A stretch of 28,031 bases of DNA, taken from positions 1 to 28,031 of the IMG/VR virus record IMGVR_UViG_3300038974_000468; one strand, written 5' to 3'. Below the pieces are notes generated by a model. It worked only from the letters and a program-made list of their open reading frames with translations. It ran no database searches and had not been told where the DNA came from. The translations under genes were made by a program, and so were the position numbers. The DNA is from a virus (lineage: Duplodnaviria > Caudoviricetes). Positions 2,187-26,911 of the stretch are shown here, one piece after another. How positions within the stretch are numbered: the first letter of the stretch is position 1; each line of letters opens with the position of its first letter.

Positions 2187-3416
2187 CTACGAATGTTTCT
2201 TCAGCGCCTTATCGCAGGGGATCGTTTCTCCATCCCTTATCAGAAAAACTCCGTCCGTGTTCCCGGTCTGCCCGATATACCGTTTCACGATAACATCGGC
2301 ATAGCGCTCATCCAACTCGATCATATAGCAAATGCGTCCCGTCTGCTCACAGGCAATGAGAGTACTGCCGCTGCCGCCGAATGGGTCAAGCACAATGTTG
2401 TTTGTCAGCGAGCTGTTCACCATCGGATAGGCGCACAGCGCCACAGGTTTCATGGTAGGATGATGTTTGCTTTTTGTTGGCCGGTCAAAGTTCCATGTCG
2501 TCCGCTGCTTGCGGTCGGCATACCAGTTGTGACCGGCTGTTGGCTTCCAGCCCACAAGAATAGGTTCATGGTTGTATTGATAATCGCAGCGCCCCAAGAC
2601 CGGTGTATTCTTTATCCATATACAGGTCTGATGACAGAAGAAGCCTGCTTCCGTAAATGCTGTCCTGAAATTGACTGTCTCACGATCAGCGTGGAAAACA
2701 TAAATGCCGCCACCGTCTACCAACGCATCATACATACACCGATATGCCGAGAGCAGGAATGCGTGGAACTTGGTACTTTCCATATTGTCATTTTTAAGTT
2801 TTCCCGCAGTGCCTTTATAGTCCACGTTGTATGGTGGGTCAGTAATCACGAGATTTGCTTGCTGACCGTCCAGCAGCTTTTTATATGTTTCCGCTTTCGT
2901 AGCATCGCCGCAGATAAGGCGGTGCCGTCCAAGCAGCCAGATGTCTCCCTGCTTAGAAATGGGCGTTTCAGGTAATGGCTCGTCAAAATCATCCTCTTTG
3001 ATACCTCCGACTATACTATCCCTGAACAACGCATCCATCTCTGCAGCGTCGAAACCCGTAAGAGATACATCAAAGCCACTTGCACCGATATCCTTCAAAA
3101 GGTCGGTCAAAAGCGGGATATCGAACTCGCCAGATATCTTGTTGAGCGCCACATTTAAGGCTTTTTCCTTTTGCTCATCGATGTCCAGCACCACGCAATC
3201 CACATCGGTATATCCGAGTGCCACCAATACTTTGTACCGTTGATGGCCACCCACAATATTGCCCGTGCGTTTATTCCATATGATAGGCTCAACATAACCG
3301 AACTCCTCAATGGAGCGGCGCAGCTTTTCATATTCAGCATCACCGGGTTTAAGGTCTTTTCGCGGATTGTATGCTGAAGGGTTTAACTTCTCAATTGATA
3401 ATTTCTGTATATCCAT
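2187..3416 (-). CDS. ParB-N domain + N6A/N4C DNA methyltransferase (DPPY)
   Basis: N-terminal YNPR...GGHQR ParB-like domain; ITDPPY catalytic motif, HPTMKP, and LDPFGGSGST SAM-binding motif (beta-class order). Confidence 0.92.
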   Translation of the reverse strand: MDIQKLSIEKLNPSAYNPRKDLKPGDAEYEKLRRSIEEFGYVEPIIWNKRTGNIVGGHQRYKVLVALGYTDVDCVVLDIDEQKEKALNVALNKISGEFDIPLLTDLLKDIGASGFDVSLTGFDAAEMDALFRDSIVGGIKEDDFDEPLPETPISKQGDIWLLGRHRLICGDATKAETYKKLLDGQQANLVITDPPYNVDYKGTAGKLKNDNMESTKFHAFLLSAYRCMYDALVDGGGIYVFHADRETVNFRTAFTEAGFFCHQTCIWIKNTPVLGRCDYQYNHEPILVGWKPTAGHNWYADRKQRTTWNFDRPTKSKHHPTMKPVALCAYPMVNSSLTNNIVLDPFGGSGSTLIACEQTGRICYMIELDERYADVIVKRYIGQTGNTDGVFLIRDGETIPCDKALKKHS

Positions 3417-3417
3417 A

Positions 3418-4716
3418 TCATACCTCCAGCTTTACAGCAGTCTCACCGGTGAATGTCTCCCAGCGCTTTACAATGAGGTCACAATAGACCGGCGAAATTT
3501 CCATCGCATAGCACCTGCGTTCGGTCTGTTCACAGGCGATGAGCGTCGTTCCACAGCCCGCGAAAGGTTCAAGTACCACGCCGCCACGGTCAGAATGCAT
3601 TTTAATGCATCGCCACGGCAACTCGACAGGAAACATAGCGGGGTGATCTTTATTGGCTCGCACGGTAGATATTTCCCAAATTCCGGCATAGCCCCATTTT
3701 TTACGCTCATCCTTGGTGAGCCGCTTCACAAACTTATAGGAATGGCCGGCGAATGCCGAAACCCAGGCAAACTCTTGGTCGTTGTATTCATCAGTTTCCT
3801 GCGCAGCCAGCGCCGTGATATATTCGTACTGCTGCACCGGTTTATTTGTCACAAGGTGATAGGGTGAATTACCGAAGTTCATGCCTTGCTTTTTCCAAAT
3901 GCGAATCCAGATAGGACGAAAGCCGTTGTCACCAAAAAGCCCAATGCTATACATTTCGGTTGGTTCAATAAACTGGGTACCTGTGGCATATAGGTCTCCG
4001 ATGTTCCAACAGACGATATCTGCATTTTTACAGATGTTCTTTATAGCGGGGCGCATAGTTTCAAACCACGGTTCGATCCCGGCTTTTTCATATTCTTTTC
4101 CGACGCCGTATGGAGGAGAGGTAACTGCGCACTGAGCGTGGGCACCGTCCATCAGATGGTCGAAATCCACCTCGCTGGTACTGTCGCCGCACAAAAGCCG
4201 ATGCTGTCCAAGCAGCCAGAGATCTCCTGAATGAGTTCGTGTTTCGCCAGCAGCTTCAATGGCTTCCTTTTCTTTGTATACGTTGAAGTCATCCTGTATG
4301 GCTTCTTTCGAGTAAAATTTATTTAAGAGCGCGTCTACTTCGTCAGCATCGAAGCCTGTTAGGGATACGTCAAATGTAGATGCGTCAAACTCTGCCATGA
4401 GCGATGCCAGCTTTGCTTCGTCCCAATCGCCCTGTATTTTATTAAGTGCAAGGTTAAGAGCCTTTTCACGTTTGTCATCAAGCTCAACAATCACGCAGTC
4501 GATTTCCGTCTGCCCAAGGTCGAGTAGCACTTTCAACCGCTGGTGACCTCCAACCACGTTACCGGTGGTCTTATTCCAGATGATCGGTTCCACATAACCG
4601 AACTCCGCAATAGAGCGCTTGAGCTTTTCGTATTCCTTGTCACCTGGCTTCAGGTCTTTTCGTGGGTTATATGCAGCTGGATTGAGCTTTGCCGCGGGTA
4701 TCTTTTCAATCAGCAT
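3418..4716 (-). CDS. ParB-N domain + DNA methyltransferase (SPPY, possibly N4-cytosine)
   Basis: Same ParB-like N-terminus; VTSPPY, HPAMFP and LEPFAGCGTT motifs. Confidence 0.9.
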   Translation of the reverse strand: MLIEKIPAAKLNPAAYNPRKDLKPGDKEYEKLKRSIAEFGYVEPIIWNKTTGNVVGGHQRLKVLLDLGQTEIDCVIVELDDKREKALNLALNKIQGDWDEAKLASLMAEFDASTFDVSLTGFDADEVDALLNKFYSKEAIQDDFNVYKEKEAIEAAGETRTHSGDLWLLGQHRLLCGDSTSEVDFDHLMDGAHAQCAVTSPPYGVGKEYEKAGIEPWFETMRPAIKNICKNADIVCWNIGDLYATGTQFIEPTEMYSIGLFGDNGFRPIWIRIWKKQGMNFGNSPYHLVTNKPVQQYEYITALAAQETDEYNDQEFAWVSAFAGHSYKFVKRLTKDERKKWGYAGIWEISTVRANKDHPAMFPVELPWRCIKMHSDRGGVVLEPFAGCGTTLIACEQTERRCYAMEISPVYCDLIVKRWETFTGETAVKLEV

Positions 4717-5869
4717 ATTTCTCAGCCGCCTTTCTTAACTCCTTATAACAATCCACGTTTTCCCACGGAAAGAGACAGGAATTGAAATGACCATATGCCG
4801 CCGTGCTTTCATATATGGCTGTACGCAAACGCAGCTTTTCAATGATAGCGGCAGGACGCAAATTAAAGACTTCCTGCACAATCAATGTAAGCTGCTCATC
4901 TGTCAGTTTGCTTGTTCCAAATGAAGTGACCGCCACTGCCACGGGACTTGCCTTACCGATGGCATAAGAAAGAGCGACCTCGCATCTTTCAGCTAAGTCG
5001 CTCCACACAATGTTCTTCGCGATATACCGTGCCATATATGCACCGCTGCGGTCAACCTTCGTCGGATCTTTGCCGCAAAGGGCTCCGCCGCCGTGAGACG
5101 CAAGACCACCATAAGTATCCACCATGATTTTTCTGCCCGTCAGTCCTGTGTCAGCAGCGGGGCCGCCCTCTACGAAACGCCCGCTGGGGTTAATGAGTAT
5201 TTCGGTATCATCGTCCATTGGGAAATCCTCAAAGCATTGCCACAAGACATTATTCATAATATCCGTGCGCAGCTGCTCCTGCGTTCTATTCGCCTCATGC
5301 TGAACAGAAATCACCACAGCTTTCACACGTTTGGGTTTACCATCTTCATATTCGACAGTAACCTGACACTTGCCGTCCGGTAGAATGCCTTTGATGAGTT
5401 TACCTTCGCGGCATTCATCAATGCGCTTGGCAATGCGATGCGAGAGCACTAGCGGCAAAGGCAAATACTCTCGCGTTTCCTTTGTTGCGTACCCGTATAC
5501 TGTGCCTTGGTCACCTGCGCCGACAGATCCGTAAGGATCGCATATGCCGTTTCGCGCTTCAATTGCCGTATCCACACCGGCTGCGATATCCGCACTCTGT
5601 CGATGAACGAATACGAACACAGTAAACTTCCAAGGATTATACCCGACCTCGCGCAGGACATTTCGCACGATAAACCGAATATCCACTTTTTCGCTACAGG
5701 TGATTTCGCCCGCTACGATAATTTTGCCCTTAGTCGCCATAACCTCGCAAGCTACGCGAGAAGCTCTGTCCTTTCTGAGACAAGCATCCAAGATATTGTC
5801 GGCAATCAGATCGCAGAGTTTATCCGGATGTCCTTTGCATACACTTTCTGCTGTTTTGTAAGTTGTCAT
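4706..5869 (-). CDS. metK: S-adenosylmethionine synthetase
   Basis: ESVxxGHPDK, GAGDQG, GRKIMVDTYG and GGGALCGKDPTKVDRS signatures; 387 aa. Confidence 0.97.
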   Translation of the reverse strand: MTTYKTAESVCKGHPDKLCDLIADNILDACLRKDRASRVACEVMATKGKIIVAGEITCSEKVDIRFIVRNVLREVGYNPWKFTVFVFVHRQSADIAAGVDTAIEARNGICDPYGSVGAGDQGTVYGYATKETREYLPLPLVLSHRIAKRIDECREGKLIKGILPDGKCQVTVEYEDGKPKRVKAVVISVQHEANRTQEQLRTDIMNNVLWQCFEDFPMDDDTEILINPSGRFVEGGPAADTGLTGRKIMVDTYGGLASHGGGALCGKDPTKVDRSGAYMARYIAKNIVWSDLAERCEVALSYAIGKASPVAVAVTSFGTSKLTDEQLTLIVQEVFNLRPAAIIEKLRLRTAIYESTAAYGHFNSCLFPWENVDCYKELRKAAEKYAD

Positions 5870-14143: not shown

Positions 14144-14566
14144 TTATTTGCGGGTCGCCTTACGGACGCCCACGGTCGTTTTTTCGAATACGCTGACCAG
14201 CCCTTCAAGCCAGTCGGGTAACACATCGTCGTTCTCGGATATCTGCTCCCGCACGAAAGCCGAGAGGGAGTTGGCGTTGACGGTCTCATATACCAGTCCG
14301 CCGTAGCCCTCTGCGCGAAGCGCCTCAAAGAGCTCTTCCTTGCGGTCGGCGGTCGCCGAGGCACGGGTCGTGTTGGTGAGGCAGAACATCGTGCCGGAGC
14401 GGGTGAAGTTCTGCGTTTCGGTATCGGTCATCAGCTGCGCCAGCGCAGCGTCGGTTTCATCGAGCGCGGCGTTTAGCTCCTTCACGTGCTGCTCGGCGTC
14501 CTTTTTCTCATCCCGCAGAGCCTTGAGCCGGTCTGCGAGTTCAAACATTTTTTCAGAATTGTCCAT
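14144..14566 (-). CDS. Conserved phage coiled-coil hypothetical protein
   Basis: 140 aa; N-terminal coiled coil, 'ETVNANSLSAFVRE' motif; AAGGAG RBS. Confidence 0.75.
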   Translation of the reverse strand: MDNSEKMFELADRLKALRDEKKDAEQHVKELNAALDETDAALAQLMTDTETQNFTRSGTMFCLTNTTRASATADRKEELFEALRAEGYGGLVYETVNANSLSAFVREQISENDDVLPDWLEGLVSVFEKTTVGVRKATRK

Positions 14567-14580
14567 TGAAATAAGCTCCT

Positions 14581-15925
14581 TTACATAAATGGGTTATTGC
14601 CGTAGCGGTAGTCGTCGACCAGCGCCTTGGCGAGGTTCGCCTTGTTCTTCAGGGCTTTAAGCACCTTCTCATCGACCGTGCCCTGAGCGGTTAGATAGAT
14701 GTAGGTACACGGCATCCGCTGACCGGCGCGGTGAATACGGGCTTTGCATTGCTCGAAGTTCGACATCGAGTAATCCAGCGAGTAAAAGACCATCGTGCTT
14801 GCCGCCGTGAGCGTCAGCCCCAGACCGGCGGTTGCGATCTGCCCGACAAAAATGGGGACATCGGGGTCGTTCTGGAAGCGGGCGACCTGCTCGTCACGGT
14901 CTTTTACGCCGCCCTTGATGAGGGAGTAGTTGACGCGCTTCTTTTCGAGCATGGCGCAGATAGCGTCAAGCTCCGGCACGAAGCGGGCGATAACAACGAG
15001 CTTGCGGTTTTCCTCGATTGCCGCGTCAAGGATGTCCTCCAGCACGTCGAGCTTTGCCGTGCTGACCTGTTCGGCGGCGCTGCTCTCATCTCTGCCGATG
15101 AAGCCGCCCGTGAGCTGCGATAACCGCAGCAGCTTGGTAAGCACGTTGGTGATGGTGACCTCGCCCTCGGATAGCTCGGCGTAGCTTTCCTGCACGAGGC
15201 TTTGGTAGAGCTTCAGCGCCCTCGGCTCCAACTCGACCTTACGGATGATGTCGGTCGTTTCCGGCAGGTCAAGGCAGTCCTTCTTTGTCGCCCGAAACGC
15301 GATGCTGTGCATACGGCGGGTCAACTCCGGCTCCATCGACTTTTTGAGCACCGGCGTGTGATTGCCGTAGCCGGTCATGTAAAAATAGGTGTTACGGAAG
15401 CTGTAAAACGACTGTCCAAAGATACGCGGGTCGAGGAACTTGTACTGAGAGAAGATATCAATTGCCTTGTTCGTGACCGGCGTTCCCGTCAAAAGCAGTC
15501 GATATTTTGCCGCCGCGCCCAGCCGGTGCATCGCTTTGGAAGCCGAGATGTTGTGCGTTTTGATTTTGTGTCCCTCGTCGGCGATAATCAGGTCGGGACG
15601 CCATGCCGCAAGCTCCTTCTCCAAGCGCCACGCCGATTCGTAGTTGATAACAGCCACCTGCAGCGCGTCGCCGGTCATGTGCCGAAGCGTATCTGCTTTC
15701 TTTTCGCCGCTACCCTTAAGCACGGCGAGGGTGTAATCAAAACCGGCAAACTTACCGAACTCCTCGTCCCATATGCCGACGACCGACAACGGTGCCACGA
15801 CCAGCGCTCTTTTGATGCGTCCGGCGTTAAACAGCGCACCGGCTGCGGCGATGGACACCAGCGTTTTCCCGGTGCTAACCCATTTCCATTAGGAGAGCGA
15901 CGCCCTGACTTCTGGAAATATTCAT
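14581..15925 (-). CDS. SNF2/DEAD-like helicase, main body; reading frame interrupted within Walker A (MEMG-stop, then TGKT in another frame)
   Basis: VAPLS, INYE, IADEGH, LTGTP, RIHRAGQ motifs in 14581..15873; upstream mini-ORF 15925..15875 encodes MNISRSQGVALLMEMG*. Either a pseudogene or recoded. Confidence 0.85.
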
Positions 15926-15930
15926 GTACA

Positions 15931-16353
15931 TCACCTGCCTTTCTTCTTCCCGAAGCCGTGTATTTTGCAATGCTCCGACTGCGACGGGAGCACCTCAAGG
16001 TTTGCGGGGTCGTTGTTGAGCTTGTTGCCGTCTATGTGGTGGACAACCTCGCCCTTTTTGAGCGGTCTGCCGAGTATGGCTTCGGCGATCCTGCGGTGCG
16101 CGTGTTTGCCAAGCAGCTTTGAATACGCCTTGCCCTCGCCGGTGCCACGGAGCTTGCGACTTCGTTTCACACGTGACTCCATCACACCGCCAGGCTTGTT
16201 CATGGGGTTATCCGTGCGGTTGTACTCGGTCATGCGCTGCGAGTTCCAGTGGTAAAAATGCTCTCGGCAGCAGAAGTTGTTCTCACGGACTTGGCTTTCC
16301 GACCGCTGGAATGCTTTCCCGCATAGGGCGCATTTCACCGTGGCTTTCGTCAT
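15931..16353 (-). CDS. Free-standing HNH homing-type endonuclease inserted in the helicase gene
   Basis: CxxCGK...FCCxxH zinc finger; HRRIAE...GEVVHHIDGNKLNNDPANL; GGAGGTGA RBS before ATG 16353. Confidence 0.9.
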   Translation of the reverse strand: MTKATVKCALCGKAFQRSESQVRENNFCCREHFYHWNSQRMTEYNRTDNPMNKPGGVMESRVKRSRKLRGTGEGKAYSKLLGKHAHRRIAEAILGRPLKKGEVVHHIDGNKLNNDPANLEVLPSQSEHCKIHGFGKKKGR

Positions 16354-16477
16354 CGGAATCACCTCCCGTCGAAACCAGACCGAACAGCTCGCAAACGAAA
16401 TTGAAAGCGGCGACCTGATGTGCATAGGGCTTTGCCTTGATTGGCATTGGAAGCAGCGGAGCAGTGTCTTTTTTCAT
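16283..16477 (-). CDS. N-terminal fragment of the SNF2 helicase (Q-motif)
   Basis: 'PMPIKAKPYAHQVAAFNF' is a PYxHQ Q-motif; ATGA-coupled to the upstream gene; runs out of frame into the HNH gene after GGD. Confidence 0.75.
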   Translation of the reverse strand: MKKDTAPLLPMPIKAKPYAHQVAAFNFVCELFGLVSTGGDSDDESHGEMRPMRESIPAVGKPSP

Positions 16478-16671
16478 CGGAGCTCGTCACCTCCGGGCAG
16501 TTCCGTGATGGAAACGCTCTCCACGGTGTCGCCGGGAACGATGACCATTACCCGACGCTTTTCGCCGAACAGGTAACGGAGCAATCGTTCTCGAAGCGCT
16601 ATGCGCTTGCATCTGACGACGCCGTCTTCGGGGGGCTTCTTGGAAACGCTGATCTTCAAATCGTGCTTCAT
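16474..16671 (-). CDS. Small conserved phage hypothetical protein
   Basis: 65 aa MKHDLKISVSK...LRERLLRYLFG..VIVPGDTV; stop overlaps the next start. Confidence 0.75.
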   Translation of the reverse strand: MKHDLKISVSKKPPEDGVVRCKRIALRERLLRYLFGEKRRVMVIVPGDTVESVSITELPGGDELR

Positions 16672-16751
16672 CTTTCATCCGTCCTCTCCGAGGGACGGTT
16701 TTGTGTGTCCCTCGGCATACGGAGAAATGAAAGGCGTTTTGGGGAGGTGTT

Positions 16752-17138
16752 TTAGAAGTTCTTTTTGAATTTCTTTCTTGCGGCTTCGATTGATTCGCGA
16801 ATGGCTCGGTGGTCGACACCCTCACGTCGGGCAATTTCCCGCATTGAAAGCCCGTCCGCAAGCATCAGCAAGCGACGCTGCTGCGTTTCCGAGAGCTTGT
16901 CCAAAGCGGCGTTGACCCGAGCGGCATACTCCTTGCTTGACATTTCGGTTTCAGGGGTAGTGTCCGTCGCGTACTCCAGCCCCTCATAATCAATGGCGTC
17001 GAGTGAATAGCTGTGATAGCGCTCCTTGCGGTCAAGATTGCTTTCCTCGCGACGCGACGCGGTTATGTAGCTGGCGATTTCCTCGTTGACCTCAACTTCC
17101 GATGTGGTACCGTCTGCAAATTTCCATGTGATTTTCAT
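16752..17138 (-). CDS. Sigma-70 region 4-type HTH protein (sigma-factor-like regulator)
   Basis: 'ALDKLSETQQRRL...GLSMREIARREGV..AIRESI..ARKK'; AAAGGAG RBS. Confidence 0.82.
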   Translation of the reverse strand: MKITWKFADGTTSEVEVNEEIASYITASRREESNLDRKERYHSYSLDAIDYEGLEYATDTTPETEMSSKEYAARVNAALDKLSETQQRRLLMLADGLSMREIARREGVDHRAIRESIEAARKKFKKNF

Positions 17139-17172
17139 TGTGCATAGCTCCTTTGAATTTCAAATTTCTGAA

Positions 17173-17281
17173 ATCCGCCAGAGCCAGCCAATCCGCACAA
17201 AACAGAAATGGACGGCAGTAGAACCCACCTCTCCTGAGAGAAGTAAAGATTCCGCACTGCCGTCCAAGCGTTCTGGCGGAT
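17173..17281 (-). ncRNA. Candidate structured cis-regulatory RNA upstream of the sigma-like gene
   Basis: Nested perfect inverted repeats 17173-82/17272-81 (10 bp) and 17209-19/17256-66 (11 bp), plus inner stems with G-U pairs on the minus strand. Confidence 0.55.
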
Positions 17282-17291
17282 ATTCGGTTGT

Positions 17292-17456
17292 TTATGCGAC
17301 TTTTTCGTTCTTAATCTCTAATGTTCCATCGTCGCGGAAATGGATTAGAGTCCGTATGCCCTTAAGCACAATTTCAACGAGTCTGTGCTTGGCATCCACA
17401 CGGCAGACCTTTTTGCCGTCTTTGTTTCTGATCTCCTCGAGAACAACATCGTCCAT
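17292..17456 (-). CDS. Small hypothetical protein (54 aa), absent from the ORF track
   Basis: Manual translation MDDVVLEEIRNKDGKKVCRVDAKHRLVEIVLKGIRTLIHFRDDGTLEIKNEKVA*; AAGGGA RBS; fits exactly between two hairpins. Confidence 0.72.
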   Translation of the reverse strand: MDDVVLEEIRNKDGKKVCRVDAKHRLVEIVLKGIRTLIHFRDDGTLEIKNEKVA

Positions 17457-17481
17457 ATAAGCCATCCCTTCTTTTCGTAAT

Positions 17482-17566
17482 AAAGAGAAAAGCCGCTATG
17501 ACGTATGCAGATAAACTCCAGATTTACACCTGAAGAGTTCTGCAATTTAGCACGTCACAGCGGCTT
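17482..17566 (-). terminator. Long hairpin followed by U-rich tract (terminator/attenuator-like)
   Basis: 15-bp stem 17566-17552/17504-17490 (one G-U on the minus strand), inner TGCAG/AACTC/CAG stems, then TTCTCTTT. Confidence 0.55.
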
Positions 17567-19508: not shown

Positions 19509-22088
19509 ATGAATCAGACAACCTATAATTCCTTGAAAGCTTTTATTTGGGGCATCGCTAACGATTGCCTTGTTGATGTATATGATGTCGGTGATTACCG
19601 AAAGGTTATCCTGCCGTTCTTTGTTATCCGCCGCTTTGACGCCGTTCTTATGCCGAAGCACGACGATGTGGTGAGAAAGAGAGTGGAGTTTGAGAAGAAG
19701 GGCATCACGGTCGATATCGACCCGGCGCTCTGCACGATAGCTGGGCAGGCTTTTTGCAATCGCTCCGACTATACACTGACTGATCTAAAATCCCGTACCA
19801 ATCAGCAGCAACTGAAGCGTGATTTTATCGCCTATTTGGACGGGTTCTCGCAGAATGTGCAGGAAATTCTGAGCAAGTTTAAAATCCGTAATGAAATCGA
19901 TACGCTTTCCGAACATGATCGCTTGGGACTACTTATCGAAAAGTTTGTTGACCCTCGCTATAACTTCAGCACAGAGCCGGTGCTTAACGATGATGGTACC
20001 GTTCGTATAGAAGGTCTGGACAACCATTCGATGGGAACGCTGTTTGAGGACGTTATCCGGCAGTTCAACGAAGAAACGAACATCACCGATGCCGGACGCC
20101 ACTTCACGCCGCGAGACATTGTGGAACTGATGGCTGACCTCGCGTTCATTCCGGTTCAAGACCAGATTCAAAGCACTACATACCGCATTTACGACGGAGC
20201 TTGTGGAACGGGCGGTATGCTTACAGTTGGAGAACAGCATATTCAGACGCTTGCTGCTCGTCGCGGTAAACGTGTCTCAATAAAGCTGTTCGGTCAAGAG
20301 AACGCCGACGAGACCTACGCCATTGCCCGTGCAGATATGCTTGTTAAGGGCGAAGGAGCGCAGGCGAATAACATAAGGTACGGTTCGACAATATCTGAAG
20401 ATAGATTTGCCCATGAGGAATTTGACTTTATGCTTTCAAATCCCCCGTTCGGAACATCGTGGAAGTCTGAACTCAAGGCTTGGGGAGATATAAAGAAAAC
20501 GGATATTACTGACCCGCGTTTTGTTATAGAATATGCTGATACTCCCGAATACTCTCTTATTCCTGATATTGGCGACCCGCAGATGCTGTTTTTAGCGAAT
20601 AATATCAGCAAAATGAAGAGAACAACCACACTTGGTAGCCGGATTGTCGAAGTACATAATAGTGCTTCATTATCAACTGGTAAGGCTGGTAGTGGACCGA
20701 GTAATCTGCGCCGAATGATTATCGAGCAGGATATGCTTGAGGCTATTATCGCACTTCCAGAAAAGATGTTTTACAACACGCCTATTAGTACTTACTTGTG
20801 GGTTGTAACTAACCAAAAGAGCGCCGCCAGACGTGGAACAGTTCAACTTATAGATGCTACATCTATGAAATCAGGTATCAGAAAGAATCTGGGAGATAAA
20901 AACTGTGAAATAAGCGAAGAAACTCGTCGGGAAATACTACAACTCTATTTGGCGTATACTCATGCCGATTCCCGCTTTAGTCGCGTGATCCCAAATGCGG
21001 AGTTTGGATATTGGGATGTGCCAATTATGCATCCGCTTCTTGACGAGCACGGTTCTCCTGTCATAGAAATGAAAGGTAAGAACAAAGGAAAGGTTAAAGC
21101 CGATAAAAAGCAAATTAATAGAGCCAGAGTTCCGTTTTCTTACGATGGCGGTATTGCTGGTTTCTTTGAAACGGAAGTAAAGCCGTTTTCTGACGCCGCA
21201 TGGATTGATGAGTCTGATGTAAAAATTGGCTACGATATAAGTTTTACAAAGTATTTTTACAATCCTGATGAATTACGAAAAACTGCTGATGTTATTAACG
21301 ATTTAAGAGAAGAACACGATATGTCTACATCTCTCTTGTCAGATATTGTACGAAAGGCAGCTGCTGATAGTGTCGGACGCACAATACAGATGCAAGATAG
21401 TGGAAATAAATGGCTTGGACAAATCCCAGCACACTGGGAGCTCGTTTATCTGTGGCAGGTTTGTTCTGAGCAAAGTAACAAGAATAAAGAGCTCACTGAG
21501 ACTAATGTTCTGTCCTTAAGCCACGGAAATATCATCCGAAAAAAGGACATAAATTACGGGCTTGTTCCAAAGGGATATGATGGATACCAAATTGTTGACC
21601 CGGGTAATATTATTCTTCGTTTAACAGATTTACAAAATGACCAGAAAAGCCTTCGCACAGGCTTAGTCAGAGAACGAGGCATCATTACATCGGCATATAC
21701 GTGCCTTAAGACAACGCAAAACCCTCGTTTTATACAGTTGATACTTCATGTTTATGACATTAATAAGTTTTTTTATGGACTCGGTGGTGGAGTAAGACAA
21801 TCTATCGGTTTTCAAGACCTAAAGACAATGATAATACCGATTCCTCCGATTGAGGAACAGAATAAAATTGCAGCGTTTGTAGATTCAAAATGTGCTGCTG
21901 TTGGTGTCGTTATCGACGATATGATAGCGCGGTTAAAAAGCGAGATCGCTCTTCTTGGACAGTATAAGACTCAAATGGCTGCAGATATCATCACTGGTAG
22001 AACTGATCTTGACGAAATTGAATCTACGCAGCTTTCAGAAGATGAGTATGTTGAAGAAGATGAGAATGAAGAACAGGAGGTAGATTAA
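19509..22088 (+). CDS. hsdM: Type I R-M methyltransferase HsdM fused to a single-TRD (half) HsdS
   Basis: HFTPRDIV, YDGACGTGG, FGQE, SNPPFG; from ~21390 HsdS repeat 'MQDSGNKWLGQIPAHW...PIPPIEEQ...IITG'. Confidence 0.9.
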   Translation: MNQTTYNSLKAFIWGIANDCLVDVYDVGDYRKVILPFFVIRRFDAVLMPKHDDVVRKRVEFEKKGITVDIDPALCTIAGQAFCNRSDYTLTDLKSRTNQQQLKRDFIAYLDGFSQNVQEILSKFKIRNEIDTLSEHDRLGLLIEKFVDPRYNFSTEPVLNDDGTVRIEGLDNHSMGTLFEDVIRQFNEETNITDAGRHFTPRDIVELMADLAFIPVQDQIQSTTYRIYDGACGTGGMLTVGEQHIQTLAARRGKRVSIKLFGQENADETYAIARADMLVKGEGAQANNIRYGSTISEDRFAHEEFDFMLSNPPFGTSWKSELKAWGDIKKTDITDPRFVIEYADTPEYSLIPDIGDPQMLFLANNISKMKRTTTLGSRIVEVHNSASLSTGKAGSGPSNLRRMIIEQDMLEAIIALPEKMFYNTPISTYLWVVTNQKSAARRGTVQLIDATSMKSGIRKNLGDKNCEISEETRREILQLYLAYTHADSRFSRVIPNAEFGYWDVPIMHPLLDEHGSPVIEMKGKNKGKVKADKKQINRARVPFSYDGGIAGFFETEVKPFSDAAWIDESDVKIGYDISFTKYFYNPDELRKTADVINDLREEHDMSTSLLSDIVRKAAADSVGRTIQMQDSGNKWLGQIPAHWELVYLWQVCSEQSNKNKELTETNVLSLSHGNIIRKKDINYGLVPKGYDGYQIVDPGNIILRLTDLQNDQKSLRTGLVRERGIITSAYTCLKTTQNPRFIQLILHVYDINKFFYGLGGGVRQSIGFQDLKTMIIPIPPIEEQNKIAAFVDSKCAAVGVVIDDMIARLKSEIALLGQYKTQMAADIITGRTDLDEIESTQLSEDEYVEEDENEEQEVD

Positions 22089-25136: not shown

Positions 25137-26911
25137 ATGGCGAAATCACATGACACCCCCATACAAGACATTCTAAAGGACATACATAACGGAACAACCC
25201 GCCTTCCCGATTTCCAACGCGGTTGGGTATGGGATGATGAGCGTATTCGTGCCTTAATAGCAAGCATAACGTGTTCGTATCCTGTCGGGGCTGTAATGTT
25301 CTTGGAGTATGGCGAGGATGGTATACGCTTTAAATCGCGGACATTTACAAGTGTGCCCGACGATGGAAAAACGCCGGAAATGCTTGTGCTGGACGGGCAA
25401 CAGCGGTTGACCAGCGTTTACTGCGCTATGTACAGCAAGTCTCCAGTACCGACGCAGACGATAAAAAAAGAGGACATTCAGCGGTATTACTATCTTGATA
25501 TTGAAAAGTGCCTTGACCCCAGTGTTGATAGAGTTGATGCTATAGTATCTATCCCTGCTGACAGAAAACCAAGGATGCTTTCGGACGCAATGTTATTACT
25601 GATCTCAGCACACGGCAAGGCGAGTTTCAACACCATATGTTCCCGCTAAACATTGTGTTCGATTCAATTGCATTGGATGAATGGAAAGATGACTACCGCG
25701 ACTTCCACAATGACCCGAATGTAAGCAAGCGGATACGCAGGTTTACTGCAGAAGTATTGAATCCGATAATTCTCTATACATTACCCGTGATTCAACTTGA
25801 TAAAAGCACTCCTAAAGAAGCCGTGTGTCAGGTTTTTGAGAATGTTAATACCGGCGGTGTAGCGCTTACTGTGTTTGAACTGGTCACAGCGACATTTGCT
25901 GCAGAGAATTATCCTTTGCGTGAAGACTGGGAAACACGAGCAAATAAAATGCAGACCGCTGACGGCACATTTGAACTGCTGTCGGTCGTTGCCGCCACGG
26001 ACTTTCTTGCATCCATGACTTTGCTGGCTCAAGTTAAAGGAAACAGAACGCTATCCGTAAAACGGAAAGATGTCCTGTCGCTTGCTTTATCAGATTACAA
26101 ATCCTACTCCGACGCACTAACTGATGGCTTCATCAGAGCAGCGCGCTTTCTTGTACAGCAGAGCGTCCTCGCTCCAAGAGACCTGCCATATACTACGCAG
26201 TTCATTCCGCTTGCAGTCCTGATGACTGTGTTAGGCAACAAAGCCGAGGATGGCGTCGTAAAAGCAAAATTGGCGTCTTGGTATTGGTGCGGAGTTTTTG
26301 GTGAAATGTACGGTTCTGCTAATGAAACCCGTTATGCCAATGATGTGTCTGGTGTGCTGGCATGGATAAATGGTGGTGATGAACCTGACACTGTCAACCG
26401 AGCATTTTTCCAGCCTACCCGGCTGCTCTCCCTCCAAACACGAAATGGCGCTGCTTATAAGGGAGTTATGGCATTAATCCTTGGTAACGGAGCGCGAGAC
26501 TTTATAAGCGGCGATAAAATGGATTTCACCAACTTCGTTGCCGACTACGTCGACATCCATCATATTTTCCCGCAGAAACACTGCGAGAAGCAAGGTTATG
26601 ACAAACGCAAGTGGAATTCCATCGTGAATAAAACACCAATTGCATATCGGACAAACAGAAAGATTGGCGGCGTTGCACCGAGTAAATATTTGAAAGCAAT
26701 TGAGGATACTAACGTATCTGCAGCCGCACTGAACACAAATCTCGAGTCTCATGGTATCGATGTCTCTGCGCTCCGTAGCGACGACTTCGATACGTTCTTC
26801 GCGCTTCGCGCAAAGTTGCTTCTCAATATGATAAGCAAGGCAATGGGCAAACAGATTGGCAATTTGGACAGTACCGAAGTAATAGATGCGTTTGGAATGT
26901 CATTAGTGTAA
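25137..26911 (+). pseudogene. GmrSD-like (DUF262 + DUF1524/HNH) nuclease, frameshifted near 25565
   Basis: FQRGWVW and LDGQQRLTS in the first frame; FENVNTGG and DIHHIFPQ...N in the second; adding one A at AGAAAACC joins them (…DRKTKDAFGRNVITDLSTRQGEFQHHMFP…). Confidence 0.8.

Follow-up and report, generated by a model that had tools for sequence, protein, structure and literature searches.

The window, which is the whole 28,031-nt stretch of viral DNA analysed (a 28-kb virus record), encoded an SNF2-type helicase on its minus strand. The helicase belonged to a phage replication module that also contained DNA polymerase A and an NrS-1-like primase-helicase. Neither a large terminase gene nor a capsid gene was recognised within the window. 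The helicase gene was broken at two places, and the following features were assigned to it, all on the minus strand:

16283..16477: ORF1, the helicase N-terminal piece (MPIKAKPYAHQ...), which matches intact relatives at their N-terminus, and a tail that derives from the cassette and overlaps the HNH gene
16359..16366: Shine-Dalgarno (SD) sequence GGAGGTGA of the HNH gene, within ORF1 (from the sequence)
15931..16353: HNH endonuclease gene, 140 aa (Pfam HNH_3, E 4.7e-14)
15931..15936: second SD (AGGTGA), which overlaps the stop codon of the HNH gene and whose GGTGA core begins 55 nt ahead of the take-off codon (anti-SD duplex −15.5 kcal/mol)
15875..15925: mini-ORF MNISRSQGVALLMEMG-stop, a new N-terminus and the helicase ATPase domain's first strand (sequence, translation)
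15881..15920: predicted 40-nt mRNA hairpin; the outer stem (15920-15913 / 15888-15881) ends at the base just before the take-off codon (folding)
15878..15880: predicted take-off codon GGT (Gly), read from the sequence
15874..15877: coding gap TAGC, 4 nt, an in-frame stop plus C; absent from intact relatives L010 and L011
15876-15874: predicted landing codon AGC, within the gap
14581..15873: ORF2, the SNF2-type helicase body from TGKT, 430 aa (ORF, Pfam)
15845..16390: approximate extent of an inferred mobile cassette (tail, HNH gene, SD, hairpin, gap and about 30 nt beyond the landing site), from identity to L010

At the downstream break, the minus strand read ATG (15889) GAA ATG GGT (15880-15878) TAG (15877-15875) C (15874) ACC GGG AAA ACG, exactly as in an earlier sequence-only reading of this DNA, which had proposed a ribosomal hop over four bases inside the Walker A motif. 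That reading had given the mini-ORF its own ribosome-binding site, and AGGTGA (15936-15931) indeed ends 5 nt before the ATG at 15925. It had also held that the frame continues past a four-base skip; with the 4 nt written as one X step, the translation was MNISRSQGVALLMEMG-X-TGKT and then open to the stop at 14581. The downstream frame was a helicase, as claimed: both SNF2-type domains were present in its 430 aa, SNF2-rel_dom (Pfam, E 8e-31) and Helicase_C, and the best PDB match was 1z63 (E 5e-32). ORF2 had no in-frame ATG, GTG or TTG ahead of GKT in the window, the first GTG coming after GKT. An in-frame GGG (15870-15868, minus strand), 7 nt beyond the take-off codon, could compete as a landing site; landing there would give an inactive P-loop two residues short.

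The second break had escaped the sequence-only reading. It was formed by the HNH_3 gene, which separates the N-terminal piece from the mini-ORF and splits the helicase 50 nt upstream of the gap. ORF1 contained a PYxHQ motif, which we take to be the 'Q motif'. The HNH gene had a dN/dS of 0.06–0.08 among close relatives, and ORF1 also looked conserved. The 140-aa protein is likely the homing nuclease of the cassette. The cassette edges were placed by comparison of the window with the intact L010: on the left, identity dropped from 11–14/15 nt to 8, 4 and 2/15 after about 16388, and on the right it was 10/15 and 6/15 nt just past the gap and then 14–15/15.

Elsewhere in the window, a GmrSD_N (DUF262-type) gene was split over two overlapping plus-strand frames (25137-25649 and 25637-26911), with Pfam domain positions 1–91 in the first and 137–198 in the second, a frameshift. 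An 859-aa ORF (19509-22088, plus strand) was a Type I HsdM fused to a short Methylase_S region, and was followed by HsdR. On the minus strand (2187-5869), a SAM synthetase gene and then two ParB_N plus N6/N4 methylase genes directly followed the terminase small subunit.

Recurrence of the gap and selection on the downstream frame

Four gap-blind searches were run with the downstream protein alone as the query. They yielded the best 80 of 98 viral loci, 13 new loci scored from 399 Clostridia-class genomes, the best 80 of at least 528 loci in a metagenome scan (2 dropped) and the best 80 of at least 590 loci in a second viral scan (3 dropped); the five dropped rows lacked upstream DNA. Among these best rows, a gap was found at ≥45% identity in 34/80 viral, 4/13 Clostridia, 16/78 metagenome and 4/23 second-scan viral loci. 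Together, 58 of the 194 best-ranked loci at this identity, or 51/178 distinct alleles, carried a gap of 4–11 nt at the same spot, so the allele of the window is not alone. The first viral set was rich in near relatives, with 11 of its 34 gapped loci carrying the TAGC of the window. Below 45% identity, none of 54 loci was gapped; automatic gap calls in two distant helicases (L479 and L500) were false, as open frames read through.

Pattern scans that demand a stop were added to the gap-blind sets, giving 45 gap types in all. They were used for diversity only, without drawing frequencies, and their matches were mostly chance (a helicase in 14/30, 37/52, 24/120 and 6/35, with 2 of the last 6 being distant intact genes). 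The gap types are related to each other, so that counts of types given below are not counts of independent events. Named carriers were Clostridia such as Desulfitobacterium sp., Hespellia stercorisuis, Lactonifactor sp., Thermotalea metallivorans and Oscillospiraceae; among cultured strains, H. stercorisuis DSM 15480 shares the four bases of the window and T. metallivorans B2-1 carries an 8-nt type. The best matches among named phages were 47–50% identical and annotated as single genes, and a search from a distant family member returned only 2 loci. In a clade at 46–51% identity (L345, L346, L421, L436-L443 and L508, the last from Faecalibacterium phage FP_Epona), the helicase began just before Walker A and no in-frame PYxHQ N-terminus was present, which suggests that the helicase body can work without the N-terminal piece in cis.

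The identical four bases were also found in 16 other contigs, 14 at 95–97% and 2 at 56% amino acid identity; some may be one sequence filed twice, and the close ones represent 10 distinct sequences including the window. An assembly error, one of the ways in which the hop might have been dismissed, was thus rejected. These relatives had diverged from the window by a dS of 0.26–0.48 with the four bases unchanged. Across 17 gapped pairs, ORF2 dN/dS was 0.036–0.110, far below 1, compared with 0.050–0.097 in three pairs that included an intact allele, two more pairs being saturated; for the window and its close gapped relatives it was 0.06–0.11.

These data bear directly on the view that the gene is dead, through a plain inactivating insertion (the alternative offered in the sequence-only reading) or through an assembly error. 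Truncation of ORF2 in two gapped alleles (L339 and L400) would fit such decay. Yet ORF2 was full length in 48/50 gapped alleles, and truncation affected 2/50 of them compared with 1/120 intact distinct alleles; one spot hosts 45 gap types; and TAGC persists in 16 other contigs at a dS of up to 0.48 with a dN/dS of 0.04–0.11. With the gap recurring and ORF2 under purifying selection, plain inactivation was rejected, and we regard a dead gene as largely refuted and barely credible. The gap is conserved and real, and it is probably functional.

Form of the gap and its upstream signals

A recurrent stop after MEMG with short, variable inserts and a downstream dN/dS below 1 had been named in advance as support for recoding, and both were found. 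A stop codon came first in 42/45 gap types (30/33 in the gap-blind sets), directly after the E, M or G of MEMG and once after T, followed by short variable inserts. TAG was used in 20, TGA in 15 and TAA in 7. The base after the gap stop was C in 28/42 types and U in none, compared with C in 14/134 at the real ORF2 stop, the single site used as control. A C at position +4 makes a weak termination context. In the three remaining types, a sense codon replaced the stop (CCA in L339 and L385, TTA in L441); at these loci (L339:1141-1155, L385:787-795 and L441:1493-1500), SD and hairpin were present and the hops may be triggered by a slow codon. L339 had further stops downstream. A fourth class was represented by L418 (around 1490-1500), with the stop after the Walker A Thr, a 10-nt gap, a perfect ACT/ACT match and a strong SD, and without the hairpin in the region tested.

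The last three bases of the gap, taken as the landing triplet, matched the codon before the stop at 2/3 positions or more in 44/45 types, compared with 0.37 in a null of random insertions conditioned on a stop. The match was full in 24/45 types, compared with 0.08 in the null, under a generous rule that takes third-position A/G and C/T as matches (ATG/ATA); L447 matched at only 1/3. In the window, AGC mismatches the take-off codon GGU at position 1. The re-pairing of GGU on AGC put forward in the sequence-only reading is plausible, because landing codons mismatched at the first position recur (12/45 gap types).

Gap lengths spanned all three frames (18/12/15 types), and 17/45 types were 9 nt long. 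No stop-free in-frame insert was found among the 45 gap types or in intact alleles, which suggests that the P-loop tolerates no extra residue. Since gaps occur in all three frames and stop-free in-frame inserts are absent, a single skipping mechanism would account for every type. The same observations weigh against frameshifting, in which a +1 shift at GGU-U/UAG, with readthrough or a −1 shift elsewhere, would leave one to four extra P-loop residues (MEMG-S-TGKT here). In the window the two frames overlap for five codons (WKWVS ahead of TGKT), a +1 shift and a 4-nt hop end in the same frame, and the weak stop context fits. However, three mechanisms would be required for gap lengths in three frames, stop-free in-frame inserts are absent from gap types and intact alleles, and the matched landing codons are left unexplained. 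We therefore consider a frameshift improbable.

Gapped alleles shared two upstream signals. A strong SD (anti-SD pairing ≤ −12 kcal/mol, 35–70 nt upstream) was present in 50/50 non-redundant gapped alleles compared with 11/103 intact ones, and the association held on independent pairs (16.4:0, p 3e-5). The second signal, an upstream hairpin of about 40 nt that had not been recognised in the sequence-only reading, covaried and was present in most gapped alleles. The eight bases before the take-off codon (−8 to −1) were paired with a partner at least 22 nt upstream in 47/50 gapped alleles, compared with 31/103 intact alleles, the latter scored at the best of three positions; on independent pairs the ratio was 10.0:0.8 (p 0.012). 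Pairing peaked at −8 to −1 relative to the take-off codon in each of the E, M and G classes and moved with that codon. With a structure derived from the same sequences, 98.3% of cells in the stem were paired, none of 500 shuffles was as good and slid controls reached 28–50%. GAA/GAG/GAC changes in the stem were compensated, and the Leu wobble base was paired in 15/16 M-class alleles, with all four Watson-Crick pairs in use.

The hairpin of the window itself was modest (MFE −13.1 kcal/mol, z −1.68, 9/200 shuffles as good), and the window (0.45, 63-nt test) was one of three gapped alleles that failed the pairing cut-off, together with L126 and L418. A 3' hairpin across the landing site was rejected (z 0.15). 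The SD was kept in 18/48 gapped alleles without an in-frame start behind it and is therefore not only an initiation signal. Because SD and hairpin travel with the cassette, association alone is no proof of function.

The SD and hairpin could also serve termination followed by assisted re-initiation, which would yield a split protein whose pieces assemble. An ATG follows the E-class gaps, the landing codons of the M class (ATA, ATC, CTG and ACG) are near-cognate starts, the hairpin would draw the SD close, and split genes are known in MobA/MobE elements. The G class, which comprises 29/50 alleles including the window, stands against it, having no start-like codon from the stop to GKT. Re-initiation is thus very unlikely.

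Removal of the gap from the RNA, by hairpin-driven polymerase skipping or a tiny splicing event, was considered as well. RNA polymerase, too, could respond to a hairpin located immediately behind the skip point, and short direct repeats flank many gaps. Metatranscriptome contigs bridged the site without a deletion or joint in 7/8 RNA-library runs; these were contigs of relatives that may hold DNA and drop minor forms. In the eighth run (X8) the site was not covered. Query words made up a small share of each run, and no habitat or expression level is claimed from them. Rfam covariance models applied to 14500-17500 gave two sub-threshold viral matches, none at the junction, and a self-splicing intron or structured RNA family was accordingly rejected there. 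With the undeleted site in RNA contigs, no Rfam intron match, signals that track codon position and a gap whose opening in-frame stop stands in a context weak for termination, RNA-level removal is disfavoured and has, in our estimate, only a slight chance of being correct.

Mobility and the predicted bypass

The distribution of gaps was examined on a FastTree phylogeny of 115 helicase bodies trimmed of their first eight residues. It held 40 gapped rows; ten more, with ORFs <400 aa and mostly from short loci, were left out. The gapped state of the 40 rows required 29 changes, compared with a shuffled mean of 33, gain and loss being indistinguishable, and supported branches forced at least 19 changes. 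Several gapped alleles had close intact sisters, that of the window being L010 (92%). Gapped alleles were scattered across the helicase tree, and a single inherited origin along it was not supported.

An HNH gene lay upstream in 17/43 gapped compared with 2/90 intact alleles, though on independent pairs this link fell short of significance (median p 0.06). In 21/50 gapped alleles, the nuclease was lost and the N-terminus re-fused in frame. The two non-redundant HNH-bearing alleles without a gap were L020 and L027. Together with L040, they were HNH-split helicases (upstream of 2501, 2236 and 1251, respectively) with the SD, without a gap and with a degenerate hairpin arm; they may have lost the hop or may carry the nuclease without it. 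The upstream HNH proteins of L039, L043, L317 and L447 were only 29–37% identical to that of the window, which suggests that more than one nuclease lineage carries the cassette. L039 and L043 had near-identical helicase bodies and different take-off classes. By analogy with T4, the link between HNH gene and cassette points first to protection from self-cleavage, ahead of the recoding control suggested in the sequence-only reading; the gap would be the end of a mobile HNH cassette and would shield the site from its own nuclease.

On these grounds, we predict from sequence that the four bases are a programmed translational bypass, with a probability of roughly 0.78. The competing readings each fail for at least one allele class. 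A ribosome would start at 15925, reach GGU with UAG-C in the A site and pause at the weak-context UAG. It would then let go of GGU while keeping peptidyl-tRNA-Gly, move forward by four bases, pair again on AGC and continue at ACC, producing the exact MEMG-TGKT Walker A. The 3' arm of the hairpin would be the mRNA just behind the P site; forming next to the SD as mRNA exits the ribosome, the hairpin may push the ribosome forward and bar its return to the take-off codon. The gap may form the right-hand terminus of a mobile HNH cassette, one that interrupts the helicase gene and replaces the Walker A coding stretch. It would protect the replaced stretch from the nuclease, and the HNH gene would often be lost later while gap and signals stay.

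A bolder extension is tentative, and we hold it to be possible at best. Upstream SD and 40-nt hairpin would form a minimal, portable bypass device acting as tether and ruler, in which geometry more than codon match sets the landing and hops down to 4 nt can end on first-position mismatches. It would have spread by HNH homing into Walker A and, once the nuclease was lost, persisted to tune helicase output, and hence phage replication, through competition with release factors.

Comparison with known bypass systems

The best reading of the locus is that a miniature bypass rides on a mobile HNH cassette, resembling T4 gene 60/MobA and the Hau3 terminase. Natural bypassing is on record from very few systems, namely T4 gene 60 with its kin, the Hau3 terminase and yeast mitochondria. 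In the T4 case, MobA (269–279 aa) is inserted in the topoisomerase large-subunit gene, and the gap is reported to protect from self-cleavage. T4-type gaps are 50 nt, the shortest 20 nt, with a take-off stem-loop and a mini-SD 5–7 nt before the landing site, and take-off and landing codons are always read by the same tRNA (bioRxiv 10.1101/2022.08.31.505936).

The helicase cassette resembles that system in several respects. An HNH gene divides a conserved gene of DNA metabolism into ORF1 with a tail and ORF2 with a new N-terminus, a homologous stretch is replaced, and a gap is present. A stop or rare codon directly follows a Gly or neighbouring take-off codon (a stop in 42/45 helicase types, CCA or TTA in 3), and the take-off site shifts by one codon between clades. 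Insertion is repeated alongside intact sisters, with loss of the nuclease while the gap is kept, and with re-fusion. Unlike the T4 system, which lies in the topoisomerase of myoviruses, the target here is the SNF2 Walker A in Clostridia-associated elements, and the nuclease is a 140-aa HNH_3 protein rather than a MobA of 269–279 aa. The helicase gap of 4–11 nt (4 in the window) has no room for a take-off stem-loop or an in-gap mini-SD; its SD lies about 55 nt upstream, 5' of the conserved hairpin. The landing codon is often mismatched, as in the GGU/AGC of the window, with a full wobble-aware match in 24/45 types. A nascent-peptide signal is part of the T4 system; the mini-ORF here has just 16 codons, and in 21/50 gapped alleles the N-terminus is a different, re-fused one. 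That forward movement is driven by pairing of the exiting mRNA is an idea from bioRxiv 10.1101/2024.12.09.627546.

The terminase of the Streptomyces phage Hau3 carries a 10-nt gap in a conserved motif, with a proposed 5' stem-loop and flanking internal SD. Bypass there is triggered by a hungry UUA codon linked to the cell cycle of the host, and it was detected by mass spectrometry in E. coli with a stop in place of UUA (PMC10732093). The helicase shares the short gap in a conserved motif, the 5' stem-loop and the flanking SD, a likeness by description rather than by exact SD and stem geometry. Unlike the UUA-triggered terminase, the helicase hop would be stop-triggered, with TTA in L441 only. 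The helicase gap is tied to an HNH gene, whereas no nuclease cassette is described for Hau3 in the portions of the source available.

Synthetic stop-hops, in which a stop lies between matching codons and one residue is specified by 9 nt, resemble the 9-nt helicase gaps (17/45 types). A 2016 review stated that no natural in-frame stop-hop was known (PMC5009743), and the 9-nt in-frame helicase gaps would be the natural example it lacked. Unlike synthetic stop-hops and the mitochondrial bypass elements of Magnusiomyces, the helicase case is natural and bacterial, with conserved covarying signals and a mobile nuclease. A published report of this helicase bypass was not found in the literature searched, which leaves out most subscription papers.

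The helicase gap is thus probably a new variant of programmed bypassing, carried on a nuclease cassette. By implication, roughly one in four of these helicase alleles would be mis-called as truncated or as pseudogenes. One phage and prophage gene family offers 45 natural hop variants of 4–11 nt whose covarying signals fit within about 70 nt. With it, one could test what the minimal bypass signals are, what degree of codon match is needed for landing, and whether the SD-plus-5'-hairpin design proposed for Hau3 is general. It would also show, independently of T4 gene 60/MobA, a homing nuclease partnered with a bypass rather than with an intron or an intein.
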